Part shown: piece by piece, positions 1,169 to 55,883 of the stretch | Position numbering within the stretch: position 1 is the first letter of the stretch | Layout: each line of letters opens with the position of its first letter | DNA from: Naegleria gruberi | Taxonomy: Eukaryota | Assembly (NCBI GenBank): GCA_000004985.1 | Contig: GG738872.1 | Strand: one strand, 5' to 3' | DNA: 64,000 nt | Notes under the pieces: generated by a model | Told to the model about the DNA's origin: nothing | Databases searched by the model: none | Seen by the model: the letters and a program-made list of their open reading frames with translations, nothing else | Translations under genes and position numbers: made by a program

Positions 1169-4100
1169 NNNNNNNNNNNNNNNNNNNNNNNNNNNNNNNN
1201 NNNNNNNNNNNNNNNNNNNNNNNNNNNNNNNNNNNNNNNNNNNNNNNNNNNNNNNNNNNNNNNNNNNNNNNNNNNNNNNNNNNNNNNNNNNNNNNNNNNN
1301 NNNNNNNNNNNNNNNNNNNNNNNNNNNNNNNNNNNNNNNNNNNNNNNNNNNNNNNNNNNNNNNNNNNNNNNNNNNNNNNNNNNNNNNNNNNNNNNNNNNN
1401 NNNNNNNNNNNNNNNNNNNNNNNNNNNNNNNNNNNNNNNNNNNNNNNNNNNNNNNNNNNNNNNNNNNNNNNNNNNNNNNNNNNNNNNNNNNNNNNNNNNN
1501 NNNNNNNNNNNNNNNNNNNNNNNNNNNNNNNNNNNNNNNNNNNNNNNNNNNNNNNNNNNNNNNNNNNNNNNNNNNNNNNNNNNNNNNNNNNNNNNNNNNN
1601 NNNNNNNNNNNNNNNNNNNNNNNNNNNNNNNNNNNNNNNNNNNNNNNNNNNNNNNNNNNNNNNNNNNNNNNNNNNNNNNNNNNNNNNNNNNNNNNNNNNN
1701 NNNNNNNNNNNNNNNNNNNNNNNNNNNNNNNNNNNNNNNNNNNNNNNNNNNNNNNNNNNNNNNNNNNNNNNNNNNNNNNNNNNNNNNNNNNNNNNNNNNN
1801 NNNNNNNNNNNNNNNNNNNNNNNNNNNNNNNNNNNNNNNNNNNNNNNNNNNNNNNNNNNNNNNNNNNNNNNNNNNNNNNNNNNNNNNNNNNNNNNNNNNN
1901 NNNNNNNNNNNNNNNNNNNNNNNNNNNNNNNNNNNNNNNNNNNNNNNNNNNNNNNNNNNNNNNNNNNNNNNNNNNNNNNNNNNNNNNNNNNNNNNNNNNN
2001 NNNNNNNNNNNNNNNNNNNNNNNNNNNNNNNNNNNNNNNNNNNNNNNNNNNNNNNNNNNNNNNNNNNNNNNNNNNNNNNNNNNNNNNNNNNNNNNNNNNN
2101 NNNNNNNNNNNNNNNNNNNNNNNNNNNNNNNNNNNNNNNNNNNNNNNNNNNNNNNNNNNNNNNNNNNNNNNNNNNNNNNNNNNNNNNNNNNNNNNNNNNN
2201 NNNNNNNNNNNNNNNNNNNNNNNNNNNNNNNNNNNNNNNNNNNNNNNNNNNNNNNNNNNNNNNNNNNNNNNNNNNNNNNNNNNNNNNNNNNNNNNNNNNN
2301 NNNNNNNNNNNNNNNNNNNNNNNNNNNNNNNNNNNNNNNNNNNNNNNNNNNNNNNNNNNNNNNNNNNNNNNNNNNNNNNNNNNNNNNNNNNNNNNNNNNN
2401 NNNNNNNNNNNNNNNNNNNNNNNNNNNNNNNNNNNNNNNNNNNNNNNNNNNNNNNNNNNNNNNNNNNNNNNNNNNNNNNNNNNNNNNNNNNNNNNNNNNN
2501 NNNNNNNNNNNNNNNNNNNNNNNNNNNNNNNNNNNNNNNNNNNNNNNNNNNNNNNNNNNNNNNNNNNNNNNNNNNNNNNNNNNNNNNNNNNNNNNNNNNN
2601 NNNNNNNNNNNNNNNNNNNNNNNNNNNNNNNNNNNNNNNNNNNNNNNNNNNNNNNNNNNNNNNNNNNNNNNNNNNNNNNNNNNNNNNNNNNNNNNNNNNN
2701 NNNNNNNNNNNNNNNNNNNNNNNNNNNNNNNNNNNNNNNNNNNNNNNNNNNNNNNNNNNNNNNNNNNNNNNNNNNNNNNNNNNNNNNNNNNNNNNNNNNN
2801 NNNNNNNNNNNNNNNNNNNNNNNNNNNNNNNNNNNNNNNNNNNNNNNNNNNNNNNNNNNNNNNNNNNNNNNNNNNNNNNNNNNNNNNNNNNNNNNNNNNN
2901 NNNNNNNNNNNNNNNNNNNNNNNNNNNNNNNNNNNNNNNNNNNNNNNNNNNNNNNNNNNNNNNNNNNNNNNNNNNNNNNNNNNNNNNNNNNNNNNNNNNN
3001 NNNNNNNNNNNNNNNNNNNNNNNNNNNNNNNNNNNNNNNNNNNNNNNNNNNNNNNNNNNNNNNNNNNNNNNNNNNNNNNNNNNNNNNNNNNNNNNNNNNN
3101 NNNNNNNNNNNNNNNNNNNNNNNNNNNNNNNNNNNNNNNNNNNNNNNNNNNNNNNNNNNNNNNNNNNNNNNNNNNNNNNNNNNNNNNNNNNNNNNNNNNN
3201 NNNNNNNNNNNNNNNNNNNNNNNNNNNNNNNNNNNNNNNNNNNNNNNNNNNNNNNNNNNNNNNNNNNNNNNNNNNNNNNNNNNNNNNNNNNNNNNNNNNN
3301 NNNNNNNNNNNNNNNNNNNNNNNNNNNNNNNNNNNNNNNNNNNNNNNNNNNNNNNNNNNNNNNNNNNNNNNNNNNNNNNNNNNNNNNNNNNNNNNNNNNN
3401 NNNNNNNNNNNNNNNNNNNNNNNNNNNNNNNNNNNNNNNNNNNNNNNNNNNNNNNNNNNNNNNNNNNNNNNNNNNNNNNNNNNNNNNNNNNNNNNNNNNN
3501 NNNNNNNNNNNNNNNNNNNNNNNNNNNNNNNNNNNNNNNNNNNNNNNNNNNNNNNNNNNNNNNNNNNNNNNNNNNNNNNNNNNNNNNNNNNNNNNNNNNN
3601 NNNNNNNNNNNNNNNNNNNNNNNNNNNNNNNNNNNNNNNNNNNNNNNNNNNNNNNNNNNNNNNNNNNNNNNNNNNNNNNNNNNNNNNNNNNNNNNNNNNN
3701 NNNNNNNNNNNNNNNNNNNNNNNNNNNNNNNNNNNNNNNNNNNNNNNNNNNNNNNNNNNNNNNNNNNNNNNNNNNNNNNNNNNNNNNNNNNNNNNNNNNN
3801 NNNNNNNNNNNNNNNNNNNNNNNNNNNNNNNNNNNNNNNNNNNNNNNNNNNNNNNNNNNNNNNNNNNNNNNNNNNNNNNNNNNNNNNNNNNNNNNNNNNN
3901 NNNNNNNNNNNNNNNNNNNNNNNNNNNNNNNNNNNNNNNNNNNNNNNNNNNNNNNNNNNNNNNNNNNNNNNNNNNNNNNNNNNNNNNNNNNNNNNNNNNN
4001 NNNNNNNNNNNNNNNNNNNNNNNNNNNNNNNNNNNNNNNNNNNNNNNNNNNNNNNNNNNNNNNNNNNNNNNNNNNNNNNNNNNNNNNNNNNNNNNNNNNN

Positions 4101-5508
4101 NNNNNNNNNNNNNNNNNNNNNNNNNNNNNNNNNNNNNNNNNNNNNNNNNNNNNNNNNNNNNNNNNNNNNNNNNNNNNNNNNNNNNNNNNNNNNNNNNNNN
4201 NNNNNNNNNNNNNNNNNNNNNNNNNNNNNNNNNNNNNNNNNNNNNNNNNNNNNNNNNNNNNNNNNNNNNNNNNNNNNNNNNNNNNNNNNNNNNNNNNNNN
4301 NNNNNNNNNNNNNNNNNNNNNNNNNNNNNNNNNNNNNNNNNNNNNNNNNNNNNNNNNNNNNNNNNNNNNNNNNNNNNNNNNNNNNNNNNNNNNNNNNNNN
4401 NNNNNNNNNNNNNNNNNNNNNNNNNNNNNNNNNNNNNNNNNNNNNNNNNNNNNNNNNNNNNNNNNNNNNNNNNNNNNNNNNNNNNNNNNNNNNNNNNNNN
4501 NNNNNNNNNNNNNNNNNNNNNNNNNNNNNNNNNNNNNNNNNNNNNNNNNNNNNNNNNNNNNNNNNNNNNNNNNNNNNNNNNNNNNNNNNNNNNNNNNNNN
4601 NNNNNNNNNNNNNNNNNNNNNNNNNNNNNNNNNNNNNNNNNNNNNNNNNNNNNNNNNNNNNNNNNNNNNNNNNNNNNNNNNNNNNNNNNNNNNNNNNNNN
4701 NNNNNNNNNNNNNNNNNNNNNNNNNNNNNNNNNNNNNNNNNNNNNNNNNNNNNNNNNNNNNNNNNNNNNNNNNNNNNNNNNNNNNNNNNNNNNNNNNNNN
4801 NNNNNNNNNNNNNNNNNNNNNNNNNNNNNNNNNNNNNNNNNNNNNNNNNNNNNNNNNNNNNNNNNNNNNNNNNNNNNNNNNNNNNNNNNNNNNNNNNNNN
4901 NNNNNNNNNNNNNNNNNNNNNNNNNNNNNNNNNNNNNNNNNNNNNNNNNNNNNNNNNNNNNNNNNNNNNNNNNNNNNNNNNNNNNNNNNNNNNNNNNNNN
5001 NNNNNNNNNNNNNNNNNNNNNNNNNNNNNNNNNNNNNNNNNNNNNNNNNNNNNNNNNNNNNNNNNNNNNNNNNNNNNNNNNNNNNNNNNNNNNNNNNNNN
5101 NNNNNNNNNNNNNNNNNNNNNNNNNNNNNNNNNNNNNNNNNNNNNNNNNNNNNNNNNNNNNNNNNNNNNNNNNNNNNNNNNNNNNNNNNNNNNNNNNNNN
5201 NNNNNNNNNNNNNNNNNNNNNNNNNNNNNNNNNNNNNNNNNNNNNNNNNNNNNNNNNNNNNNNNNNNNNNNNNNNNNNNNNNNNNNNNNNNNNNNNNNNN
5301 NNNNNNNNNNNNNNNNNNNNNNNNNNNNNNNNNNNNNNNNNNNNNNNNNNNNNNNNNNNNNNNNNNNNNNNNNNNNNNNNNNNNNNNNNNNNNNNNNNNN
5401 NNNNNNNNNNNNNNNNNNNNNNNNNNNNNNNNNNNNNNNNNNNNNNNNNNNNNNNNNNNNNNNNNNNNNNNNNNNNNNNNNNNNNNNNNNNNNNNNNNNN
5501 NNNNNNNN
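1169..5508. other. Assembly gap (run of N, about 4.3 kb)
   Basis: Continuous n characters. ORF-track entries 1148..5923(-) and 1162..5517(+) are artefacts of translating N. Confidence 0.99.
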
Positions 5509-6537: not shown

Positions 6538-9303
6538 TTAATCATCAATATAGTCATCTAAAGGGTATATATAATCATTAAAGTAACGTAAAACCATACT
6601 TTCATCAACAAAGTTATCGAAAGGTTCCCATGTTGATTGTTTGTAACCATAACCTTGCCATTTTACAAGGTAATTGAAATATTTTGGTAATAAAAGATCA
6701 GAATCAATATCTATATCTTTTTCGATTAATTGATGGTCTAAAATCTCATCAACTACAAATATATCATCTGTTTGAGTATCTTGTAAATCTGAAGAATCAG
6801 CTGAAGAATCATCTGACATATCTGCCCATCTCCTTTTGGTACCTCCTTTCTTTTCCTTCTTGGATCTAAAAGAGGAACATTTCTTATATTCTTCTGGTGT
6901 CATTTTAAATTCAGAGAAGAACTTTTGCAAATCTTCAGGATTTAATGGGATGGTTACACCATCAAACCAATGATGATCTTTCAAATAACGATTCACATGT
7001 GAAACCAAATCTTCAAAAAACACATCCCTTTCTGAACTATTCCAATAACTATTTAGTAATATCTTGAATTTTGTAATAACCCGACTTTTTACCTTCCAAT
7101 AATTTTTGTTGAATTGTTTTTTATCTTCCTCTGTAACAATTTCAAGATCTGAAAATGCCATAAGAGATCTATAGATAGATCCCATGAAATTAGTAGTTTC
7201 TGTTAATGCAACCGTCTTTCCAAAAAGAAACTTCAGTTTCGGTATGTTGTCAATTAGCCAAGTCTTGCATTTGAAATCAACTCTTGTTTGTGGAAGTGAT
7301 TTTCTTTGAGAAATTATATTCTTGTTTGTTTGAGGAATATTCATAAATCCAACGCTCTCATCAATACATTCATCTCTCATAAATAGATATTTGAAAGGTA
7401 CGCAACCATTAGGATTGGATTTTCTAGATGTTATATATGAAGATGGTGACAATTCAACATTCAAAATATTATGAAAAGTAGTTTCCAATGTATCAGATGA
7501 TGAAAATCCATAATCTTGAATAGATCCTTGAACATATTGAAATATCATCTGCCGATGATGTACAGTATCTGCAAGGTACCTCTCTGGTAGTTGGTTGAAT
7601 ATTTTGAAAGCATATCTTTCATATGATTTAATTGAGCGCTTACTGACATGTCCTAGCATGAATGAAATTGCACTCTTTGTTTGCTCTTGCACAATATGGT
7701 TTCGAATAATATCAACCAACATGTTTTCTACCACAATACCAGATCTACCAGCACGTGCACAATACATGACATTTAAAATTCTCTTGGTGATATTTCTAAT
7801 ATATTCTGATATTCCATTTGAACAACATTGAGATTTAGATTGTTTTTTGAAAAATAAAAATTCTTTCACTACATCATTCTTAAATGTGAATTTACCATCT
7901 GAAATGAATTTTTCCCAATTAGAATTAAAGTTGGCAAATATCTCAGAACGAGTGTACCACAAATAATATAATAAAATGAATGATGAACAGAGAGTATGAT
8001 TCTGCTTTCCAAATATTGACACATTCCTTGATGAAGTGGTTGTACGCTTGTCTTTCTTCACTTCCATAGAAGTGTGAATAACGAACCATTTATCATCATT
8101 AAGATAATATTCAACTTTTTGAAATTTTACATCTTCAAGTCTTATCCAAATAAGAGAATCTCCTCTCATTCCAGTAGCTCGAATAACATGCATGATGGCA
8201 ACATCAGTAAGATCTTCAACTTTTGTCAAATCAGCAGCATAGGTAACTTTGTAGACCTCAGAAAACATCATTGGAGCAACTTTGTACACTTCACACCCAT
8301 ATAATCGAATCAAGCCCATTGTTGTTTGTTGAATAGCTTCCTTAAATAGAATGACTGGACTTTCACCGAATTTAGGATGTCTTTTTATGAATTTGTTCAA
8401 TCCATACACAAAGCACCCTTTCATTGTCTTATGCGAAAAACCACTAGCTCGACTGAATATCAAAAATCTAAGGTAGGTTATCTTTTCAATAGGGAATGGT
8501 TTCGGTTGAATCTTTGACCACGCTGTTTTGCCTTTGATTTGTTCTTTCCAAAACGACACATAGACAATTCCTGAATAAGCTTCAAATTGTCTAGTATTGA
8601 TATGCTTATGAAGCTTCATTACAGTGACAACCTTGGAAATATCTTCATCCAAATCATCAACAATTGTTAAATCTAAATTTGAATCAATTTCCTCATTGAA
8701 CTCTGGTCGAATAACAGCAGATTTCTTTTTTTTTGGAGTATAGCTTGCCACAAGGAGATCTTCAACATCATAATCAATTAAGCTAGCTTCCAAATTGTCA
8801 TTGATCTCTTCTAACATCTTTTCCTTCTCTTTCGGTGATGATGATTCTACATTACGAATAAGGGATTCTTTTCGAATTTCTTCATCAGTCATTTCGGGAG
8901 GGTTATCCATCTTGTTCATTCTTTCAATCTCTTGTAAAATATCTGACACAACATCCTTTTGATGCATATAAGGCTGTATCATTGTGTCTAAATCTTTAAT
9001 TGATTGAGCAACACCAATAAAATTGTTATTATGATTTAATAATGCCATTATGTGATGAAATGACTGCATAGTAAACTCAGCATCCAAACAATAAGTAACT
9101 CCGTTATAATCAACATTGATTGATTTGGAGCCAATATACTCCTTGTTGTTTAGCAAATCATTCATTTGATAAACTCGCGATGATGAGTTCTTTGATACTA
9201 AGGCGCTCTCATCCTGTTGAGTTGGTGGGAGTTCACCGGTTGGTGAATGGTTGTTGTTGGTGCAATCACTTAAATGAGAGCTTGTAGATGATGATGGAAG
9301 CAT
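6538..9303 (-). CDS. Tyrosine-recombinase-like protein (Crypton/DIRS-type YR core) with a C-terminal chromodomain, 921 aa
   Basis: - Start codon: a true ATG at 9303.
- YR box I-like segment: HVIRATGMRGDSLIWIRLEDV.
- YR box II-like segment: YCARAGRSGIVVENMLVDIIRNH...LGHVSKRSIKSYERY (LGH ... catalytic Tyr pattern).
- C-terminal segment DIFVVDEILDHQLIEK...YFNYLVKWQGYGYKQSTWEPFDNF...LRYF fits the chromodomain consensus (YxVExIL...YLVKWKGY...TWEP.N).
- No RT/RNaseH motifs are present in this ORF. Confidence 0.65.
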   Translation of the reverse strand: MLPSSSTSSHLSDCTNNNHSPTGELPPTQQDESALVSKNSSSRVYQMNDLLNNKEYIGSKSINVDYNGVTYCLDAEFTMQSFHHIMALLNHNNNFIGVAQSIKDLDTMIQPYMHQKDVVSDILQEIERMNKMDNPPEMTDEEIRKESLIRNVESSSPKEKEKMLEEINDNLEASLIDYDVEDLLVASYTPKKKKSAVIRPEFNEEIDSNLDLTIVDDLDEDISKVVTVMKLHKHINTRQFEAYSGIVYVSFWKEQIKGKTAWSKIQPKPFPIEKITYLRFLIFSRASGFSHKTMKGCFVYGLNKFIKRHPKFGESPVILFKEAIQQTTMGLIRLYGCEVYKVAPMMFSEVYKVTYAADLTKVEDLTDVAIMHVIRATGMRGDSLIWIRLEDVKFQKVEYYLNDDKWFVIHTSMEVKKDKRTTTSSRNVSIFGKQNHTLCSSFILLYYLWYTRSEIFANFNSNWEKFISDGKFTFKNDVVKEFLFFKKQSKSQCCSNGISEYIRNITKRILNVMYCARAGRSGIVVENMLVDIIRNHIVQEQTKSAISFMLGHVSKRSIKSYERYAFKIFNQLPERYLADTVHHRQMIFQYVQGSIQDYGFSSSDTLETTFHNILNVELSPSSYITSRKSNPNGCVPFKYLFMRDECIDESVGFMNIPQTNKNIISQRKSLPQTRVDFKCKTWLIDNIPKLKFLFGKTVALTETTNFMGSIYRSLMAFSDLEIVTEEDKKQFNKNYWKVKSRVITKFKILLNSYWNSSERDVFFEDLVSHVNRYLKDHHWFDGVTIPLNPEDLQKFFSEFKMTPEEYKKCSSFRSKKEKKGGTKRRWADMSDDSSADSSDLQDTQTDDIFVVDEILDHQLIEKDIDIDSDLLLPKYFNYLVKWQGYGYKQSTWEPFDNFVDESMVLRYFNDYIYPLDDYIDD

Positions 9304-9705: not shown

Positions 9706-9731
9706 CCCAAACCCAAACCCAAACCCAAACC
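9706..9731. repeat. Interstitial telomeric repeat, (CCCAAA)x4.3, same orientation as the terminal array
   Basis: Read directly: cccaaacccaaacccaaacccaaacc. It is immediately followed, in frame, by homology to the receptor cyclase-like family. Confidence 0.9.
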
Positions 9732-10238
9732 TATTGCTCGCCTATTAGAAGAACACTATGGAACTAGTTTGAATATTAAATGCAATACCAAGTATTTAAT
9801 TTCATCAGAAACTGATTACATTTCAATTTACAGATTATATACAGATACTGATGTTGATTGGTAAGTAACCTAAACGAGTTAGATATAATAATTGTTCAAA
9901 ATAGGTTGTTTGTGTTAGCAGTTCCTCAATGGAATTACATTAGGTCAATTGTTATTGCTGTAATTTGTGCTATTGTTGGTGCCACATTCATTGTCACAAC
10001 AGGTGTAGCCATTTCCATCTTCATTTCAGTCAGATTAGTGAAACCATTTTACAATTTGATTGATTTATTCGAAAGTGTCTCTCATATGGATTTGGATAAT
10101 TTAGAAATTCATGATTCCAAATTTACAGAAGTGAAACAGTTACAAACTCATTTCAAAACCATGACAGACAGAATCAAACTTTACAGAGCTTTCATACCAT
10201 CACATTTACAAGTAATTTTGTCTCATTCATTTTATTAA
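9732..10238 (+). pseudogene. Truncated relic of a receptor-type cyclase-homology family gene: only the juxtamembrane/TM/linker portion, in 2 exons (9732..9860 and 9905..10238, with a 44-nt GTAAGT...TAG intron)
   Basis: - The fragment translates as ...LEEHYGTSLNIKCNTKYLISSETDYISIYRLYTDTDVDW|LFVLAVPQWNYIRS...VKPFYNLIDLFESVSHMDLD...RIKLYRAFIPSHLQ.
- It matches the paralog at 14687..15973: LDHYSNDWTKITCNEMQVLERSGQYISIYRLCTSSKIDWILVLSVPQWNY...VKPFYNLIELFESVANMDLD...RIKLYKSFIPAHLL.
- It also matches the paralog at 53385..55883.
- The N-terminal ectodomain exons are missing, and there is no room downstream for the cyclase domain. Confidence 0.6.
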
Positions 10239-10547: not shown

Positions 10548-13500
10548 CTACCAATTACTGTTGTTTATTAAGNNNNNNNNNNNNNNNNNNNNNNNNNNNN
10601 NNNNNNNNNNNNNNNNNNNNNNNNNNNNNNNNNNNNNNNNNNNNNNNNNNNNNNNNNNNNNNNNNNNNNNNNNNNNNNNNNNNNNNNNNNNNNNNNNNNN
10701 NNNNNNNNNNNNNNNNNNNNNNNNNNNNNNNNNNNNNNNNNNNNNNNNNNNNNNNNNNNNNNNNNNNNNNNNNNNNNNNNNNNNNNNNNNNNNNNNNNNN
10801 NNNNNNNCATTATTTGTAATGACAGAGGTAATGACTAATGATATCAAAGTAATACAAGCAGGTAATAAAAGTGTTGGCATGTTCATCAATCTCAAAATCT
10901 CAGTCAATGCCTCAGCAACTCCACTTTGAGTAATTGCTGCCGCAATTCCAAAAGATGCTCCAACCAATGTCACTAATCTCCATTCCACACAATCAACTGC
11001 TCTCGTTGGTGTTATCAATCCAAATGCAACGACTGCACAGAATGTCACAAGTGTACATTGAACCATTGGAAATCCAGCAATGGCGCATCCAATCATTGCT
11101 AAAAAGAATGGGAAAATCCAATGTTCCCACCACCACAAATCTAAAATGATTTTAGTGAAGGGAATTCTGAATAGAAATGGTTTTTGTTTGAATTGGTTGT
11201 AATCTGGTGAGATTTCGTTAAATCTTGTAATGAGATAGAAATCCTTTGAATTGTCATGATTATTATGGTAGAAAACACTTTTACCCAAAATTAGAATAGT
11301 ATCACCACAATATACTGTTTTGCAATTGACGTGTGAATCCTTATCGTTGGTTTCTTTAGTATCAATTGAGGAGGAACCAACTTGTCTGATGGCTAATACT
11401 TTGACTTGATATCTTCTTTCGAATTCCAAATAAGTTTCTCCTAAACATGGATTTGAAGCTCCAATAACAACCTGGAAGAATTCAGGTTCATTTTCTTGAA
11501 TTTCAGATTGATTAGTTTTAGATTTTTCATTGGAGAGAGCTGCATCTCCATAATTCTTCTTGATATTATGATGTAATTGATTAGTGACTGGATTTTCAGC
11601 TTGTGGTGATGTTGTTGGTGAATCAATTAAATGGTCTTGAGATGTTGAAGAAGCCACGCAACTGCTCTGTGAAATTCTTCCTTCTTCCATTGGAGATTCA
11701 ACACTCAAAAAGGAAGTAGTGCTTTGACCTGTTGCCATTTTAGGTTCTTCTTTTTGGTTGACTGATTCAGAACTTTCAAAAGTTGATTTTTCAATTTCAG
11801 AACCATCATACACAAGTGAATGCAAACGTAAAATTAATTGAGGAGCTCCTTGGAAAACCAAAATATCAGAACTTTCCAATTTTAGATCTAAAGGAACTGG
11901 TGAAATTTTTTCAAGCCCAGCAACAGTTTCGTTTGTTGCTGGAATAATTGTATTCGAAGAAGTAGAGCTATTTGAAGAGTTTGTGGATTGCTCTGGACTT
12001 TCCTTAGGTTCTTCTACCTTAATTTCAATAGATTCTCCATTGGAAATTACATTTGGTTCGCTTGAAGTTGTTGGTTGACTTGAAGATTGTACACTGCTCA
12101 ATTCAACTTGATTGGTTGATTTCTTTTCTCTCAAAATTTCAATCAAATCCAAGTTGCCTATTCCCAACTCTGACATGGCTTTGACTTTGGTCTTTCCATT
12201 CAAAGTTTCAAATAATGTTTTACCTTTCGAATACTTTGGTTGAGAAGCCAAATATTCCATCTTGACAATGGTAACGAAAGTTTCCGAATGTTCTCTCACA
12301 ACTTCTCTTGCACGTTCCTTTTTACTTTTATGAGCAAAAGTAACCTTTGAAGCATTAAACTTTGAAGTCACTCCTTCATTAGGAACAATCCACAATGTAT
12401 AAGTGCAACAATAAATAATTGTAATGAAACATAAAATGGCGCCAACATAAACAAACTCATAAAAGGATAAAGGAGTGTAACCATATTGAGTATAGATACC
12501 ATTTGCAACAATACTTGCTGAAGTTCCAATATATGTCAACAATCCACCTCCATTTGTTGCGAATAAAAGTGACATGAGAAATTTGGTATGTGAAAGTTTG
12601 TGTGTCCTTGCCCATTCCATAATGATAGGAATTCCTGTGGCCACAACTGGAGTATTCGATACAAATGCACTAAAAATGGTAAAAACAAAACAAATTCTTA
12701 AAGTTGGTGGTATGAGTGAAATAAAATTGAGAAATTTGTTTTTGGAATTTTTGAATTTCAATGGGGAACCAAATAAAAGTCTGGCAAATTTCAAAACTAG
12801 GGTATTTTCACTTAATGGTTTGACGATTGGGAAGAGGAGAGCAACGATGAGAGTACCAGTGTTGGAAAAACCACTTAAGGCATCTGTAACACTGACAATA
12901 CCTGCCAGATTAAAAATGACAAGTGTCATAACCACAATAAAGTAAGGTCTCCAAAGAGAAACAACCAGACAGACTAGCATTAGGATGACCATGCATAGTA
13001 CGAACCATAATTTCCATGAATTCCATGAAAATGCAACTACAGGTGACGTGGATCCACAAATATTATTGATGGATGAGCTTGTTAACACTGTATCTATGCT
13101 CACAGATTGATTCAGCTGTTGAATGGTAGTAAAGTTGTAGTTTAGATTCTTAGAAGGAACTTGTGCTTGTAAATCGTTGAAAGCATTCACCAATTCTTGA
13201 CTAAACATTCCACTTTCAATCTTGTTTCTAATATCAGCAAGGTCGAGTTTGACTAGAAACCATTGAATTGCATAGGAATTTGTAAACAACTCTGGAATAT
13301 CCAAGTATTTGGTAGAATTCATGAATGCATTCTTACTTGTCGTTCCATTTATATGAAAAACCATCTTTTCATATGTCAAATCCATTCCACTTTTTGTTTG
13401 AATGACAGAAATTGGATATTCTTGAAGGAGAGAAGTTCTGGAAGGAAGAAAGAGTGAATTTTGATATTTTGTGGAAAGTAAGTTATTATGGATGATTCTA

Positions 13501-13964
13501 AAATAGTAAAAACTTAGTGTTTCGTTCGTTTCGTGCAAACTTTCGACATGTTCATCAAATAGAAACTTCCAAGAAATTGTTCCTTGTCCGTGTTCATAAC
13601 TCAATGAAACATAACTAATGGTAGTGCTTGCATTTATGGTAGAACTCTTATAATTCGTATCGTCATTCGAATAGTAAACACTCTCGGATATATTTTTGGT
13701 AAACTCGGTGGAAAATTGATAAATTTGACCATTTACAAATGCAGATGAAGTAGAAATACAATTATCCAATCGAATAGGATGATTTAGCAAGTTTGCAAGT
13801 GATAAAATGATGAAAATGCTTGAAATGCAAGCAAATACGAAACTGTGGAGTTTCATCTTTTTTTCTTTCGAATTGTTAGATGAGAAGGAAGAGATTCGTC
13901 CTGTTGAAATGCAAAAGGGCACAACTGTGGCCATGCTGGACTCGTTTTCTATACTATTTGGCAT
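10548..13964 (-). CDS. Anion permease of the CitMHS / ArsB-NhaD (SLC13-like) superfamily. Two permease halves are separated by a cytoplasmic loop with two TrkA-C (RCK_C) domains, and there is an about 330-aa N-terminal ectodomain after a signal anchor.
   Basis: - Start codon: a true ATG at 13964.
- First multi-TM block: CMVILMLVCLV...GIPIIMEWARTHKLSHTKF...ATNGGGLLTYIGTSASIV.
- TrkA-C-like segment: FFQVVIGASNPCLGETYLEFERRYQVKVLAIRQ...CGDTILILGKS.
- Second TM block: WWEHWIFPFFLAMIGCAIAG...VTLVGASFGIAAAITQSGVAEAL.
- The C-terminus is interrupted by the N gap, so the 3' end is uncertain. Confidence 0.6.
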   Translation of the reverse strand: MPNSIENESSMATVVPFCISTGRISSFSSNNSKEKKMKLHSFVFACISSIFIILSLANLLNHPIRLDNCISTSSAFVNGQIYQFSTEFTKNISESVYYSNDDTNYKSSTINASTTISYVSLSYEHGQGTISWKFLFDEHVESLHETNETLSFYYFRIIHNNLLSTKYQNSLFLPSRTSLLQEYPISVIQTKSGMDLTYEKMVFHINGTTSKNAFMNSTKYLDIPELFTNSYAIQWFLVKLDLADIRNKIESGMFSQELVNAFNDLQAQVPSKNLNYNFTTIQQLNQSVSIDTVLTSSSINNICGSTSPVVAFSWNSWKLWFVLCMVILMLVCLVVSLWRPYFIVVMTLVIFNLAGIVSVTDALSGFSNTGTLIVALLFPIVKPLSENTLVLKFARLLFGSPLKFKNSKNKFLNFISLIPPTLRICFVFTIFSAFVSNTPVVATGIPIIMEWARTHKLSHTKFLMSLLFATNGGGLLTYIGTSASIVANGIYTQYGYTPLSFYEFVYVGAILCFITIIYCCTYTLWIVPNEGVTSKFNASKVTFAHKSKKERAREVVREHSETFVTIVKMEYLASQPKYSKGKTLFETLNGKTKVKAMSELGIGNLDLIEILREKKSTNQVELSSVQSSSQPTTSSEPNVISNGESIEIKVEEPKESPEQSTNSSNSSTSSNTIIPATNETVAGLEKISPVPLDLKLESSDILVFQGAPQLILRLHSLVYDGSEIEKSTFESSESVNQKEEPKMATGQSTTSFLSVESPMEEGRISQSSCVASSTSQDHLIDSPTTSPQAENPVTNQLHHNIKKNYGDAALSNEKSKTNQSEIQENEPEFFQVVIGASNPCLGETYLEFERRYQVKVLAIRQVGSSSIDTKETNDKDSHVNCKTVYCGDTILILGKSVFYHNNHDNSKDFYLITRFNEISPDYNQFKQKPFLFRIPFTKIILDLWWWEHWIFPFFLAMIGCAIAGFPMVQCTLVTFCAVVAFGLITPTRAVDCVEWRLVTLVGASFGIAAAITQSGVAEALTEILRLMNMPTLLLPACITLISLVITSVITNNXXXXXXXXXXXXXXXXXXXXXXXXXXXXXXXXXXXXXXXXXXXXXXXXXXXXXXXXXXXXXXXXXXXXXXXXXXXXXXXLINNSNW
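10573..10807. other. Assembly gap (235 N)
   Basis: Run of n. It interrupts the 3' end of the transporter gene. Confidence 0.99.
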
Positions 13965-14686
13965 GTTGGTTCGATCTTTCGAATATAAATTATAATTATT
14001 AATTTTCGGATAGTGCGGAACTTGAAAAGGAAAGCATCAAGGATATTGTAAAGTTAATTCCTTTCGACCTTTGGCAATAAAATTATTCAACTCCGCAATC
14101 ACACTTTCTATTAGGTCAAAGTCTTTCGAATAACAAAAAGAAAAACTATTAGAAACCAGCAGAAACTATTCGTCTTGTTTTTTTACAACTTAACTCTTCC
14201 CATTGACTTCCGCCCAGTGATGATGAGTAATTGTGTTCACTCTTCAAATCGTTCCCAAAACAAATTTGCAATCCAACAAACGAATTTGGCCATGGAAAGT
14301 CATTAGAATAGGCAGCCATAAAAGAATGCAATGAAAAATCTGGTTTATTCGTTCACATATGGACTCGTTCACAAATTTCGTTGTGGGAATTGAATCTACA
14401 TTTTTGGAATGAAAAAAATGCTAGACGATACTTTTGAAGAATCCTTTCGAATAGTTCTTGTTGGAATTACATGAAACACAATTACATTTTGCTTTCACAT
14501 TGTCTTAGTAAATGAAGTGTAGGTCCATCATGTGGATTTTGTTGATAGAAAGTTTGAAGAATCGAATAAGCTTGTTTGTAATCTTGTTGTAGGAATAATC
14601 TGGATGCTTGTAGATAATCATGCCATTGAGATTGTTTGTTCTTTTCTTGGAGTTCGTACATCCACTTTGTTTTTGAATCAGTTTAA

Positions 14687-17128
14687 TCAACACATTCGAA
14701 ATTTAACACAAAAAGTTATTGGAAAGGTCAAAAACAGAAAAGGACTTACCTCATCGTCGTTCACTTTCAAAGAAGATCCCAATTCATAGATATTTGTTAG
14801 CACGCCAGTATTTGGAGTCTTGTATTCGTCAGTTTTTCCATTGAGCGAGTTTAAATTAGTTTCGTCTAGTAATTCTTTGGAATCTACATATCTGATTTGG
14901 AACAATTGTTCACATTTTTCCTTAATCTTCTCACTTACTACAATACTAACATTCAGTTGAATTGCAATTTGAGTCAATTGATCCAAATTTTGTTTGGCGC
15001 TCGAAATTATTGTAAAGTTTTTCAATTCGTTCGTTCCAATATTTCCACAATAGGAAGATTGTGATAAAACTGCAATTTTAAATGACATTAAATCCAATAA
15101 TTGTGAATTCTTCTTGAAACTGTTTAATAAGGTTGAGGCAGCGACAACTCCTTTTTCTTCATGATTCGTCTGATTATTCGAAGAGTTAAACGAAATGGTG
15201 ATTGATTCATTTTCAAAGTTTCCAACGTTTCCTGTCAAACTTCTACTCACACTATTAATCTGTTCAAAAATATCTGACATTAGCTCAATAGTTTCGTTTG
15301 GATTCATATTTTGCAACCATTCAGTAAATCCATTAAAATGAATCTGGACGAAAGTTACCTTCTTCTGTTCCATATACAAGGAAAACTTGCTTCTATCATT
15401 CTTATATACTTTCCTTGAGGATCTTGCTTTATGAGAAATTCCTTTACTGGAATTAGAACTTCCCACTGATTGAGTTTCCTGACTTGACATGTTGTGCGAA
15501 GATCCTCCGTAGACTTTAGTTCTGGAATTCTTTCGGAAAGATTCGTCTACTTCACTGTCTGATTCTTGGATACCATCTACATTTTCAATTTCTGAAAGTA
15601 AGTGAGCTGGAATAAAACTCTTGTAAAGTTTGATTCGGTTGACCATGGAAATGAAATGTCCTTGTAATTGTTTCACTTCTGAGAATGAACTTGGAATAAT
15701 GTGAAGTTGATCCAAATCCATATTAGCAACACTTTCGAATAACTCTATCAAATTATAAAACGGCTTGACAACTTTTAAGGAAACAACAACTCCCAAGACT
15801 AAACCAACCGAAATGATGAGAACACTACCAATCAATGAGCAGATAATTGCAAAAATTGTCGATCCTAAATAATTCCATTGAGGGACACTCAACACTAATA
15901 TCCAATCAATTTTTGAGCTAGTACACAATCTATATATGGAAATGTATTGTCCACTACGTTCGAGAACTTGCATTTCATTGCAAGTTATTTTAGTCCAATC
16001 ATTCGAATAATGATCAAGAATAGCTTGAGAAATTGCGTTGATTTTGGTATCTGAAACATCGGTTGGTGTTTTTCTATCTAATGATCCATCTGATTTCCAA
16101 TCTGAAATTGTAACTTCCTCTCTGTCAACTATTTCCCATAAACTTTACAATAAAAATTTATGTAACTTACCTGCAATCAAATAAGCAGTTTCAGTTTCCA
16201 CAATAAATCCTAAAGATCCAGTAATGGATGCAATTCTTTCTTTCAAAAAGTCTGAAATCGATGACACTGTCAAATCATTTGCTTGATAATAGTGAAAATT
16301 GTGTCCGTTAGGAAGAGGAAGTTTCTTATTTACGACACAATTCATGGAAGTGATGAATGTGTATTGAGGCATTGAAATGTCAGCATAACTCAATGTAAAA
16401 ACTTGTTGACCTGGATTAGCATCACAGACCTCAACGAGATAGCTCACATCGAATGGCTTGTTGGTTTCGTCTGGATTAGAATTTCTAACACACTGTTCGT
16501 GATTGGTAATGTTGTCGCAATAATAGATTAATTGAGCTGTTGATGTGATATTAAAAGTGGCCAAATAATCTCCCCACTCAATTGATCCAAAGCATGTTTT
16601 ATCTGTACCTCCCACATATGAGGAAATTGTAATTCCCTTCAAATGTTTTTGAGATGACTAATGGCAATTTGAAGGTATTTCATTAATTTTCATGAATTTT
16701 TCATATTTTGAATATGAGAATAGGAATCAATAAACTTTGCTTACCTTGTAGCCTGCAAACATAATCCTCTCCAAATAATCGAAATTTCCATACGAATAAT
16801 CATCAGTTGCCAATTGTTGTTTAATGGCCTCATTCAATACATTAACTTCTTTGAGTGTTTGCTCTGCATATTTGACAATGGTTGAAAACTCTTCGTCTCT
16901 CACTGTTGATGATAAACTGACAACTGTTGGAGAAAAACTTGCCAACCAAATGGCAGATAGGATCAAAACACTGAGGAAGAGTAAACCAGATACCATGACA
17001 ATCATACAAAATTTGATGGAAGTTCCCTTAGTTGAGCCTCCTGTGTAGGAACTTGTTTCTTGATTCTTATCCATTATGGCTTGTTTATCCTCTTGTGAGG
17101 TTGGTGTTACCTTGTTCTTTAATTTCAT
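14687..17128 (-). CDS. Receptor-type cyclase-homology (pseudo-cyclase) protein, about 760 aa, 3 exons. Exon 1 is 16745..17128. Exon 2 is 16171..16636. Exon 3 is 14690..16128, or 14690..16089 with an alternative in-frame acceptor.
   Basis: - Start codon: ATG at 17128.
- Intron 1 donor: AAG|GTAAGC. Intron 1 acceptor: tttgaag|GGAATT.
- Intron 2 donor: GCAG|GTAAGT. Intron 2 acceptor: gggaaatag|TTGAC.
- Architecture: N-terminal cytosolic stretch, signal-anchor TM, ectodomain, second TM (ILVLSVPQWNY...), HAMP-like linker, then a class III nucleotidyl-cyclase-like domain.
- Cyclase-like motifs: VTFVQIHFNGFTEW ... GNVGNFENESITISF ... FKIAVLSQSSYCGNIGTNELKNFTIISSAKQNL.
- The canonical metal-binding Asp residues are replaced: D->H/Q in the first motif, and IGD->FEN in the second.
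- Paralogous to the gene at 53385..55883. Confidence 0.6.
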
Positions 17129-53384: not shown

Positions 53385-55883
53385 ATGGAAGATAAATCTG
53401 CAATACATAACGATAACTATCAGGGGAGTGCTGTCGTTCTTGCTCGACTCAACAAACGGTCTTCTTCTATTGTTATTGGACATCAATCTAGTGATGACGA
53501 CATATCGATAGATGCAGAAGAGAATAGAAATAGCTCTCCCTTTTATAAATCTGTAAAGTTTTCGCTCTTAATGTTGGTAGGAGCTTCAGTACTACTCACA
53601 GTTGTACTTTTAACATTAATATGGATACCAACTTTTAGTTCTAGTATTTATACCCTAAGTGAAGCCAATAGGCTCAAAGAATTTAACTCTATAGTTTCCT
53701 TTGTTTCACAAACTGTGCGAGAGATTGTGATGGTTTCAGAGTCAAGTAAAAATTTGCTCAAATATGACTTTAATGTATCAGATGTGTCTGTAGTCGAACG
53801 AGCCATGTACCAAATTTATAAGAGCGAACAAAAATTTCACAAAGGCTTAACCTATTCGACCTACATTGGTGATTCATTTGGCAATTTGGTTGGCATTGTT
53901 GACTTGAATGGAAAGCACATGTTTGTACTTGTAGATAGTAACAACACGCAGTTATTTGAGTGTGTAGATATTTGGAAAAATGATTTGTGTGTTAGATCGC
54001 AAACACCCAACACCAGTGCACCAAGATTGGACATGAGTGTTGTTGTGGAGAGAGGGACCTTATTCTTAAACTCGCCCTCCTTCACTCTAAGCTATGTAGA
54101 TTCAAGGTTTCCCTACACTGTCTATATTACATTAGTGAATAGTGTGAGTAAGGCTGAAGATGCTTCCCTAGGAATTCCCTTTTCATTTTATTTTGGTTAT
54201 GATATCTCAACGACACGAATTTCGAACTATCTCAATAGTGAATCCTCAGATATACCCAACTCATTGGCCTACATTCTAGAGTCATCAACAGGCAATATTA
54301 TTTCCAGTAGTTTCAATGATTTTTACTATGGAACACCAAATGCTAGATCCTCAATTACTAATTTCCCAGGTGGAGGAAGAAATAAGTATATTGCGGAGAC
54401 TATTCTCGGCAACTTGAATTCAAACATTAGAAATCTGAGGTGTGGTGAGCAGTTGTTTCTCTCACCAGGTGATGAATACATAACAGCCCACAGAATTTGC
54501 CTCGAAGAGAACATTGATTGGATTATTGTTTTTGCAGTGAAACAATGGACCTATGTTTCTACAATGGTTGTGGCAATTGTGGTTGCTCTTGTTGCAAGTA
54601 CAGTTGTTACAATTATTGGATTCATCATTGGAATTTTCTTTTCTTTGAAAATGGTGGAGCCATTCGACTCTCTCATTGCAATGGTCAGGTCCGTCTCTTA
54701 TATGGACTTTGCTCTTCCAAAGATTGAACCATCCTTCTTCTCTGAATTGTCAGATTTACAACAAAACTTTTTACTCATGATTAGTAAAATTAAGAGCTAC
54801 AGAGCCTTCATTCCAAGTCACCTTCTTTCAGAATTGGATGCTCCTAATGAGAAGGCTCTTGTGGAGGATATTCAAAATAAGAAACCATCTGGAAATTTGG
54901 TGAGAAGACTCTCCTCTTCAAAGAGATTATCTCAGGGAGCACTAAGGAAGACTATGGTATTTGCACAGAAGGATAGATTTGCTCTCGGATTGGAAGACAG
55001 ATGTATCAGCCAAGTCTGTATTTACATTCAAGGATTCAAAACAATAACAGAAGATTGTGATTTGAAAGACATTGTCTTTTTATTGGGAGAAATTTATGAT
55101 TCCCTTATAAAGACAAGCAAAACCACAGGAGGTCAAATTGGATTATTCGAAAATAACTTGGTAACCATGTCTTGGAACGCAACAAAGGATCAACCAAAAC
55201 ATGAACTTAAGGCACTAAGCACAGCAACCTCATTCTTACAAAAAATTAACATTATCAAAGAAACCAGATGGAGATCGTATGAAGTCTTCAGAACATTCCC
55301 AAAACTCTTAGAGAATATTCATTTTAGAGTATCAGTTTCATCCCAATTGTGTCAGTGTGGTAATATTGGTACTGAAGAATTTAAGAGTTTTACAATCCTA
55401 GGAAGTATACAAAAGAACCTTTTCAGTCTTGTAAATATTGCAAAACAATTCAATCTTGGAGTGTTAGTGACTGAAGATATTCACTCTGCATGTGTAACAA
55501 ATTTTACAATGAGATATATTGAAAATGTAGACCTCGCTGTAGATGTAAGAAGGGCAAGAAATAATTTTGCAGAACCTCTCAAACAAAAAAGCACAAAACT
55601 ATATGAAGTTGGAGAAAGTACAGCTGTTAATATTGATGAGTGGATGTACGAGCTTCAAGAAAAGGAAAAGAAGGAAAGGTGGTTAAATTACAATAGAGCT
55701 ACCTTGTCCTTCTTTGAAAAGGATTACAATGAAGCAATTACATTAATGGATGAATTTTTGAAAAAGTTTCCAGATGATTTACCAGCACTTCACTTTAAAG
55801 CAAAATGTTATTCATACTTGGGAAACATCTCTCATGTTGAATCTCTAGAGGTATTAAGAAAGAACAGTTTCAAAGATAAATAA
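53385..55883 (+). CDS. Receptor-type cyclase-homology (pseudo-cyclase) protein, 832 aa, single exon. Paralog of the gene at 14687..17128. Carries C-terminal TPR-like helices.
   Basis: - Start codon: ATG at 53385.
- Architecture: N-terminal TM anchor (FSLLMLVGASVLLTVVLLTLIWI), ectodomain, second TM (AVKQWTYVSTMVVAIVVALVASTVVTIIGFIIGIFF), linker (MVEPFDSLIAMVRSVSYMDF...KIKSYRAFIPSHLLSEL), then a cyclase-like domain.
- Cyclase-like motifs: VCIYIQGFKTITE ... GGQIGLFENNLVTMSW ... FRVSVSSQLCQCGNIGTEEFKSFTILGSIQKNLFSL.
- The Asp-to-Q and IGD-to-FEN substitutions are the same as in the paralog. Confidence 0.65.
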   Translation: MEDKSAIHNDNYQGSAVVLARLNKRSSSIVIGHQSSDDDISIDAEENRNSSPFYKSVKFSLLMLVGASVLLTVVLLTLIWIPTFSSSIYTLSEANRLKEFNSIVSFVSQTVREIVMVSESSKNLLKYDFNVSDVSVVERAMYQIYKSEQKFHKGLTYSTYIGDSFGNLVGIVDLNGKHMFVLVDSNNTQLFECVDIWKNDLCVRSQTPNTSAPRLDMSVVVERGTLFLNSPSFTLSYVDSRFPYTVYITLVNSVSKAEDASLGIPFSFYFGYDISTTRISNYLNSESSDIPNSLAYILESSTGNIISSSFNDFYYGTPNARSSITNFPGGGRNKYIAETILGNLNSNIRNLRCGEQLFLSPGDEYITAHRICLEENIDWIIVFAVKQWTYVSTMVVAIVVALVASTVVTIIGFIIGIFFSLKMVEPFDSLIAMVRSVSYMDFALPKIEPSFFSELSDLQQNFLLMISKIKSYRAFIPSHLLSELDAPNEKALVEDIQNKKPSGNLVRRLSSSKRLSQGALRKTMVFAQKDRFALGLEDRCISQVCIYIQGFKTITEDCDLKDIVFLLGEIYDSLIKTSKTTGGQIGLFENNLVTMSWNATKDQPKHELKALSTATSFLQKINIIKETRWRSYEVFRTFPKLLENIHFRVSVSSQLCQCGNIGTEEFKSFTILGSIQKNLFSLVNIAKQFNLGVLVTEDIHSACVTNFTMRYIENVDLAVDVRRARNNFAEPLKQKSTKLYEVGESTAVNIDEWMYELQEKEKKERWLNYNRATLSFFEKDYNEAITLMDEFLKKFPDDLPALHFKAKCYSYLGNISHVESLEVLRKNSFKDK

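Follow-up and report, generated by a model that had tools for sequence, protein, structure and literature searches.

What does a receptor gain from a cyclase domain that has lost the residues needed to make cyclic nucleotides? The question is raised by a pair of genes in a 64,000-nucleotide stretch of Naegleria gruberi DNA (contig GG738872.1 of assembly GCA_000004985.1, hereafter the window), in which an earlier note, made from the sequence alone, had described a lineage-specific family of receptor-like pseudo-cyclases with two intact members and one truncated relic. We refer to the intact genes as gene A (protein pA) and gene B (protein pB). Both are descended from bacterial-type sensor adenylate cyclases and keep their order of double-Cache (dCache) ectodomain, transmembrane (TM) segment, HAMP domain, class III domain and TPR-like tail. 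With a probability of roughly 0.7, and on the strength of aligned residues, we read them as selectively maintained, non-catalytic receptors that carry a pseudo-cyclase domain.

Two intact genes encode collinear receptor-like proteins

Gene B is a single intronless open reading frame (ORF) of 832 amino acids on the plus strand (53385..55883), and its product matches an N. gruberi "predicted protein" (P0001) at 100% identity. Orthologs in N. lovaniensis (P0002) and N. fowleri (P0003) are 50-51% identical to pB over 95% of its length. Gene A lies on the minus strand (14485..17128), where a manual in-frame splice model yields 801 amino acids from four exons (17128-16745, 16657-16171, 16101-14750 and 14664-14485) and a stop codon at 14484-14482. 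Its introns of 87, 69 and 85 nucleotides are all GT..AG; the first two link three listed ORFs and the third, which starts at 14749, leads to exon 4. The gene had been thought to end at 14687, where the frame of exon 3 reaches a stop within the 85-nucleotide intron; it ends instead at 14485. The window thus holds two intact paralogs, as proposed, gene A from 17128 to 14485 and gene B from 53385 to 55883.

pA and pB are collinear and 31% identical over 785 amino acids (BLASTP E=2e-119). Similarly, pA is collinear with its N. lovaniensis ortholog P0004, which has the same tail (48% identity, 95% coverage). In a collection of 5.8 billion proteins, where pB is present at 100% identity, we found no identical or near-identical entry for pA, the best match being the N. 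lovaniensis protein at 48%. Gene A, although its four-exon frame is intact, has apparently been left out of the N. gruberi annotation.

Hydrophobicity, profiles and fold agree on the order that had been claimed for both proteins: TM segment, ectodomain, TM segment, HAMP and class III cyclase-like domain. Two hydrophobic TM segments flank an ectodomain of approximately 300 residues. In pB the ectodomain comprises residues 83-387 (53631..54545, plus strand), identified as a dCache module from an AlphaFold2 (AF2) model and Foldseek; approximately residues 64-365 of pA (15878..16939, minus strand, spanning introns 1 and 2) align to this dCache-fold model. Modeled alone, the pB ectodomain has a long N-terminal stalk helix followed by two PAS-like modules (predicted local distance difference test score, pLDDT, 84.5; predicted TM-score, pTM, 0.82). 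All of its top 50 Foldseek matches in the PDB are dCache ligand-binding domains of bacterial chemoreceptors and kinases (E ~2e-8, TM-score 0.5-0.64), among them TlpQ (6fu4), TlpA (6e09), Tlp3 (6w3s) and PctD (7prq). The Pfam model dCache_1 (PF02743) matched neither pA nor pB at E<=1, and matched a distant relative, P0140, with E=4.7e-12.

The second TM segment (TM2), HAMP domain and a transducer-like helix follow at residues 388-485 of pB (54546..54839, plus strand; model helices 387-438, 453-474 and 478-485). The equivalent part of pA, approximately residues 366-462 (15587..15877, minus strand), was placed by a family profile and by alignment with the bacterial cyclase P0017, and its transducer-like helix reads "Y(K/R)xFIPxHLLSE". 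A profile of TM2 and the next 70 residues (profile A6), searched against the PDB, matched TM2 and HAMP of NarQ (5iji, E=2e-4) and Tsr (E=0.017). The Pro and Glu of the HAMP signature aligned with those of NarQ and Tsr, and both are invariant across the family. The invariant "FIPxH" helix after HAMP aligned with an "RYVP" segment that precedes the catalytic domain of P0017.

Between the transducer helix and the cyclase-like domain lies a Ser/Lys-rich insert of 50-80 residues that is predicted to be disordered. In pB it corresponds to residues 486-533 (54840..54983, plus strand; pLDDT <50) and contains "RRLSSSKRLS"; in pA it corresponds to approximately residues 463-526 (15395..15586, minus strand) and has no equivalent in the aligned bacterial cyclases P0017-P0019. 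The motif "RR(L/I)SS", of the type recognized by basophilic kinases, is kept throughout the pB clade (P0002, P0003, P0029). An RRxS sequence of the PKA/PKG type occurs in the linker of 29 of 41 members, a count to which the "K(K/R)VT" start of the domain contributes and which comes from a linker rich in Ser, Arg and Lys. We therefore treat a phosphorylation site here as a lead only, convincing solely for "RR(L/I)SS" in the pB clade. Other paralogs have RRYS, RRTS or RRQS about 10 residues before the degenerate domain, which could be chance in a Ser/Arg-rich linker.

The C-terminal tail of pB (residues 749-832; 55629..55880, plus strand) opens with "DEWMYEL" and forms five short helices in the model. 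These TPR-like helices had been taken for an addition peculiar to gene B. However, exon 4 of gene A (14485..14664, minus strand) encodes the same "DEWMYEL" stretch, here "WMYELQEK", and the same TPR-like tail, 41% identical to pB residues 752-810, and P0004 has it as well. TPR scores for the tail are weak and below threshold (TPR_14 E=0.014, TPR_19 E=0.02-0.13; in pA, ANAPC3/TPR range E=0.015-0.13), and so is the profile match to designed CTPR proteins in the PDB (E=0.03-0.3). Residues that are invariant and specific to the family are FIPxH, NHExK, CGNxG, K667 and DEWMYEL.

The cyclase-like domain lacks the catalytic residues of class III enzymes

The cyclase-homology domain spans residues 534-748 of pB (54984..55628, plus strand), as supported by phmmer, profile and Foldseek, and residues 527-738 of pA (14759..15394, minus strand), as supported by an hmmsearch alignment with P0017-P0019 and a profile-to-CyaB alignment. 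Its homology to class III cyclases, asserted previously, is borne out by sequence and fold. pB alone matched CyaB (3r5g) in phmmer with E=4.6e-4. An 11-sequence family profile searched against the PDB matched CyaB with E=3.6e-12, Cya2 (2w01) with E=1.7e-10 and CyaC (1wc0) with E=2e-6, followed by photoactivated and mammalian cyclases. The full-length AF2 model of pB (pLDDT 75.9) superposed on 3r5g_A with a TM-score of 0.81 (root-mean-square deviation 3.9 over 213 columns) and on Cya2 2w01 and CyaC 1wc0 with TM-scores of 0.76 and 0.76.

Pfam Guanylate_cyc (PF00211), which the earlier note had suggested as the yardstick, does not register this homology: it reported neither pA nor pB at E<=1, and the relationship is visible only by family profile or fold. 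Relatives score 16-20 bits or not at all against a gathering threshold of 21.9 bits, compared with 71.7 bits for P0112, a relative with an intact site. A Pfam scan of pA, pB and the gene fragment found no cyclase, Cache or HAMP match even at E<=1.

We established the catalytic register from three independent alignments (HMMER profile to CyaB, MAFFT with P0017-P0019, and the hmmsearch alignment), and all agree. At the first metal-binding Asp, which in canonical enzymes lies in the beta1 motif "FxDIxGFT", pA has His and pB has Tyr. The substrate Lys is replaced by Asn in pA and Leu in pB; the Gly of the beta2-beta3 GD motif by Asn in both; the second metal-binding Asp by Glu in pA and Asn in pB; and the substrate Asp by Asn in pA and Ser in pB. 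At the transition-state Asn, pA has Gln and pB has Lys (Asn in both with a one-residue shift), and at the transition-state Arg, part of the alpha4 motif "NxAxR", pA has Gln and pB has Ser (Leu in both with a one-residue shift). In all three alignments metal site 1 is not Asp, and the substrate Lys, substrate Asp and transition-state Arg are lost in both proteins. The fold persists, and so do many scaffold residues: those of the "GNxG" strand, a conserved His following beta3 and the beta6 Arg.

The two proteins had been said to share identical substitutions, with Asp changed to His or Gln in the first motif and IGD changed to FEN in the second. Neither part survives the alignment. The first Asp is His in pA and Tyr, not Gln, in pB, the second is Glu in pA and Asn in pB, and "FEN" was misaligned by one residue: its canonical counterpart is F-x-G, and the Asp column comes directly after it.

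Family columns place these differences in context. Among the 44 closest members, the first metal-Asp column is H12, Y12, L7, F4 and others, and never Asp; the second is D21, N8, G7, E6 and Q2. The transition-state Arg is present in 2 of 44 close members, and variation is also seen in both substrate-specifying columns, which hold Lys/Asp in cyclases that use ATP and a Glu/Cys-type pair in those that use GTP. With the first Asp column variable and the second often Asp, an argument for pseudoenzyme function from identical substitutions fails. What sustains the conclusion is that the family as a whole lacks the first Asp, together with the Arg and the substrate-specifying pair, not that the replacements are the same.

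The degenerate domain is the most constrained part of the gene B protein

To ask whether the genes are maintained, we compared gene B with its N. lovaniensis ortholog, which is also intronless. The ratio of nonsynonymous to synonymous rates (dN/dS) that had been proposed as a check carries no meaning here, as the proportion of synonymous differences (pS) is saturated at ~0.78-0.81; the proportion of nonsynonymous differences (pN) is nevertheless far below it, which shows purifying selection. By domain, pN is lowest in the cyclase-like domain (0.26), followed by the dCache module and HAMP (0.31 each), the linker (0.42) and the tail (0.43). By this ranking no other part of the protein is as constrained as the dead domain.

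In both N. fowleri and N. lovaniensis the orthologs, ~50% identical, are intact. The proposal of a conserved pseudoenzyme receptor, as opposed to random decay, is upheld by intact orthologs in three Naegleria species, by pN far below pS, by synteny with N. lovaniensis, by the invariant residues specific to the family, and by residues lost across the family.

The family is large and extends beyond Naegleria

We next determined how widely these proteins occur. A profile search of 1.84 billion representative proteins returned 256 clusters at E<=1e-30, and columns were counted in the best 150 of these, together with pA and earlier matches (147 alignable sequences, 144 of them eukaryotic). At least 11 members are encoded by N. 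gruberi (pA, pB, P0007, P0008, P0009, P0023, P0025, P0033, P0034, P0061 and P0107) on at least 10 scaffolds, so that the three members previously counted understate the family. One of these members, P0025 (XP_002673367), is annotated "adenylate/guanylate cyclase".

Among these best-scoring clusters, at least one metal Asp is missing from 143 of the 144 members that are eukaryotic. The sole exception is P0112 from Willaertia magna, which keeps both metal Asp residues as well as the substrate Lys, the Asn and the Arg, has Ser in the substrate-Asp column, and matches PF00211 with E=7e-20. Named sources of family members are N. gruberi, N. fowleri, N. lovaniensis, W. magna, Percolomonas cosmopolitus and the prokinetoplastid Apiculatamorpha spiralis, with many metagenomic contigs besides. 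The term lineage-specific is apt for the close F-E-N subfamily, seen in Naegleria and Willaertia, and too narrow for the degenerate relatives in Percolomonas, a prokinetoplastid and metagenomic eukaryotes. Judged by these matches, the family is specific to Discoba-type protists and not to Naegleria alone.

The degenerate module of HAMP, cyclase-like domain and tail also occurs behind other N-termini: a NIT sensor in P0056 from N. fowleri, and ankyrin repeats in the metagenomic protein P0070, one of a group of proteins of 1150-1300 amino acids. From these sequences, the dead output module appears to be reused with several sensors.

A working model and its alternatives

We propose that a small extracellular ligand would bind the dCache module of a receptor dimer, and that TM2 and HAMP would relay the signal to the conserved "FIPxHLLSE" helix. 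The helix would in turn alter the state or availability of a dimer of dead cyclase domains and the attached TPR-like tails, which would act by binding and not by catalysis. Three outputs can be envisaged. The domain and tail could recruit a partner protein; the domain could hold or sense a nucleotide, given that it retains the GNxG strand, an Asn and, in many of the proteins, one Asp; or it could pair with active cyclase subunits, which would be silenced because the pair lacks a complete site. The disordered insert of 50-80 residues could plausibly serve as a phosphorylation-controlled hinge.

Several observations weigh against non-catalytic, maintained receptors of this kind. The second metal Asp is kept in about half of the close paralogs (21/44). 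The Asn one residue after the canonical transition-state column is nearly invariant (37/44); in the pB model this is N678, at position +3 from the start of a helix (H675-688), which we take to be where the transition-state Asn normally sits. The Asn may therefore be retained through a one-residue shift, in which case the Arg position would be occupied by Leu. A family-specific Glu, that of F-E-N, stands two residues before the Asp column. From these residues, the degenerate domain may have kept some nucleotide or metal binding. Inactivity is deduced from sequence, and the output mechanism is inferred throughout. Finally, rigid helical coupling of the kind used by genuine HAMP-cyclases is hard to reconcile with the disordered insert, and the sensor and the dead domain might be uncoupled.

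A related explanation is that the dead domains are heterodimer partners of intact cyclases with the same architecture, and act as ligand-controlled inhibitors in dimers without a complete site. Class III domains work as head-to-tail dimers with shared sites, and the scaffold residues of the domain are well conserved. The clade also contains an intact relative of the same overall layout, P0112 of Willaertia, and a bacterial-type Cache adenylate cyclase has been reported in Naegleria (PMC4822843). However, the pseudo-family outnumbers intact relatives 143:1 among the best 144, and two features, the long disordered insert and the tail specific to the family, speak for an independent role. We consider this explanation unlikely, if worth keeping in view.

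The earlier note had framed the genes differently, as a subtelomeric, fast-turnover, lineage-specific family whose dynamics are reflected in the three copies in the window. Consistent with this framing, all three copies lie within 56 kb of the telomere, the fragment adjoins an interstitial telomere repeat, and an ORF resembling a mobile element lies distal to the fragment. The fragment itself is real: a truncated third copy of 145 codons is present on the plus strand at 9733..10208 (tblastn E=3e-37; exon 9733-9860, 44-nucleotide intron 9861-9904, exon 9905-10208). Nothing but the end of the ectodomain, TM2 and HAMP is represented in it; a cyclase-like domain is missing. Its homology stops at "SHL", with a stop codon 10 codons further on, and the nearly invariant Cys of "YRLCT" is Tyr. 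Beyond gene A, gene B and this fragment, no further homology to the family was found in the window at E<=10.

We rejected the view that the fragment is a decayed third gene of the locus: it shares 91% identity with residues 287-430 of P0008, an N. gruberi paralog encoded on another scaffold, compared with 76% for P0007, 50% for pA and 40% for pB. Immediately at the 5' end of the fragment, 9.7 kb inside the chromosome, is an interstitial telomere repeat, (CCCAAA)x4 + CC (9706..9731, plus strand), in the same orientation as the terminal telomere and with 0 matches expected by chance. We infer that the chromosome once ended inside a copy of a P0008-like gene, where the break would have been healed by telomere addition, and that the healed end was later capped by ~9.7 kb of new distal DNA. 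Fragment and repeat are a genuine sign of end rearrangement, involving a stray gene piece that has no part in the function of receptors A and B.

For genes A and B the picture is different. Their N. lovaniensis orthologs are 13.5 kb apart and 37-56 kb from a contig end, with RhoGEF and PGAP1 neighbors common to the two loci, and in N. gruberi they sit among the housekeeping genes NUP210, CitMHS transporter and PGAP1. Because they are syntenic in N. lovaniensis and have housekeeping flanks, A and B are not turning over. Identity of only 31% between pA and pB indicates an old duplication, and at least nine other N. gruberi members are on other scaffolds (245-708 kb). The idea of subtelomeric turnover of the family is weakened by the syntenic pair, its neighbors and members on at least nine other scaffolds; only the fragment, which comes from a P0008-like gene and not from A or B, reflects rearrangement at the chromosome end. 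As an account of the family we find turnover improbable.

It is very unlikely that the proteins are still cyclases, or other nucleotidyl transferases, with an unconventional site in which the Glu of F-E-N and the next residue replace the lost beta1 Asp. In favor of such a site, all 44 closest members have the E and N of F-E-N, 27 of the 44 have an acidic residue in the column after it (D21, E6), the Asn beside the canonical transition-state column is common as noted above, and the GNxG strand is invariant. But in 17 of 44, gene B and its two orthologs ("FENN") among them, Asn, Gly or Gln stands where the second ligand would have to be; 42 of 44 lack the transition-state Arg; and both substrate-specifying positions are non-canonical and variable. 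We know of no class III cyclase that functions without the two Asp residues and the Arg. The bolder version, that the invariant Glu rebuilds the metal site for a new chemistry, strikes us as more far-fetched still.

We consider it highly improbable that the genes are decaying or non-functional relics of a Naegleria cyclase expansion. The loss of catalytic residues, the absence of gene A among the annotated proteins searched and the presence in the window of a copy that is plainly a dead fragment speak for it, but both genes have full-length frames, the splice sites of gene A are intact, the orthologs are 48-51% identical though synonymous sites are saturated, and the cyclase-like domain is the most constrained, which already contradicts decay.

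Relation to known cyclases and degenerate receptors

The closest architectural counterpart of these pseudo-cyclase receptors is a bacterial dCache-HAMP class IIIb cyclase, P0017, a metagenomic protein with PF02743 and PF00211 matches and the same order of TM segment, double-Cache, TM segment, HAMP (including its signature Pro and Glu), transducer, class III domain (including the GNxG strand) and tail. P0017 and the CHASE2 cyclase P0018 align end to end with the family from HAMP to the TPR-like tail, and share with it the tail pattern Y..A...F....F..A...F......D.PA......C. The differences lie elsewhere. The bacterial cyclases P0017-P0019 keep D, K, GD, D, N and R, residues that the Naegleria proteins lack, and have no insert, whereas the Naegleria proteins carry the 50-80-residue disordered Ser-rich segment. 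The "RPWY" ectodomain motif of P0017 is not visible in family sequences, and their ectodomain has gained conserved Cys residues. CyaB (Pseudomonas aeruginosa, 3r5g), Cya2 (Synechocystis, 2w01) and CyaC (Spirulina, 1wc0), the best profile and fold matches, are active enzymes with the full catalytic set, and are 14-19% identical to pB.

Degenerate halves are well known from pseudo-heterodimers such as the C1/C2 domains of mammalian adenylate cyclase (AC) and the alpha/beta subunits of soluble guanylate cyclase (sGC), and degenerate GGDEF receptors include LapD and PelD. Like the Naegleria family, all of these retain a non-catalytic domain of cyclase fold for regulation or binding. In AC and sGC, however, each subunit keeps a complementary half-site and one site works, whereas the A and B chains lose both half-sites; LapD and PelD belong to the GGDEF family and sense cyclic di-GMP, whereas A and B have the class III fold.

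Proteins of this general kind have been noticed before. A pan-eukaryotic TM-HAMP-Cache1 subfamily of nucleotidyl cyclase III with members in Euglena and Naegleria (PMC6366073), and a "bacterial-type adenylate cyclase" with a Cache domain in Naegleria (PMC4822843), have the same architecture and the same phyletic neighborhood (Discoba) as our family. In the passages of those papers found by keyword, the proteins are treated as cyclases and their catalytic residues are not addressed; here the domain is degenerate and lies beyond the reach of PF00211 and dCache_1. A literature search on pseudo-cyclases and degenerate cyclase domains in Naegleria found no description of a large conserved family with a wholly dead class III domain. 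Cache/HAMP sensor cyclases (including those of Naegleria), dead cyclase halves and degenerate GGDEF receptors are already known, and pseudoenzymes are common in large signaling families.

A tentative extension, for which the case is close to balanced, is that much of the "cyclase" repertoire of Discoba might be a superfamily of sensor-receptors (dCache, NIT, ankyrin) that signal through a dead class III domain and a TPR-like tail. If so, it would be a class III counterpart of the bacterial degenerate GGDEF/EAL receptors, sensing nucleotides or silencing cyclases, for example.

The N. gruberi genome paper reportedly counted ~108 adenylate/guanylate cyclases. A pangenome paper gives "at least 81" Naegleria cyclases (PMC9928731). 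Such counts, used to argue for rich cyclic-nucleotide signaling, probably overstate catalytic capacity, because at least 11 N. gruberi genes, and hundreds of related clusters in Willaertia, Percolomonas, a prokinetoplastid and uncultured eukaryotes, belong to a family for which the known mechanism of cyclic-nucleotide synthesis is not available. Automatic names, "Guanylate cyclase domain-containing protein" for example, mislead in the same way. For annotation, the lesson is that standard Pfam models miss both the sensor and the output domain of the family. Orthologs in N. fowleri, the brain-eating amoeba, would give a pathogen surface receptors that humans lack. The role of a dead cyclase domain in a ligand-sensing receptor is the question that this class of receptors poses, and it is now a testable one.

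Layout of the locus and the chromosome end

The receptor locus of N. lovaniensis (PYSW02000005.1, 27-66 kb) and that of the window (14-59 kb) are syntenic and rearranged. In N. lovaniensis, RhoGEF and PGAP1 both lie between the receptor genes; in N. gruberi, where 36 kb separate the receptor genes, RhoGEF is again between them and PGAP1 is found just past gene B.

The window has a GC content of ~33% and two assembly gaps, at 1169-5508 and 10573-10807. The second (235 N) breaks the 3' end of the CitMHS-type transporter gene (10548-13964, minus strand), which has a long Ser/Thr-rich insert mid-gene; owing to the gap, the end of this gene and its distance to the receptor fragment are uncertain.

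Between the terminal telomere and the interstitial repeat lies a 921-amino-acid ORF (6538-9303, minus strand), part of the DNA that would have been added distal to the healed end. Its sole Pfam match is a C-terminal chromodomain (E=4.7e-10), and it may be a mobile-element protein. Assignment to a Crypton/DIRS-like tyrosine recombinase is a guess of ours. The window itself starts in the telomere, (CCCAAA)n from 1 to ~470, and at its inner end (361-470) perfect CCCAAA units give way to the variants CCCAAAAA and CCTAAAAA and then to unique sequence.

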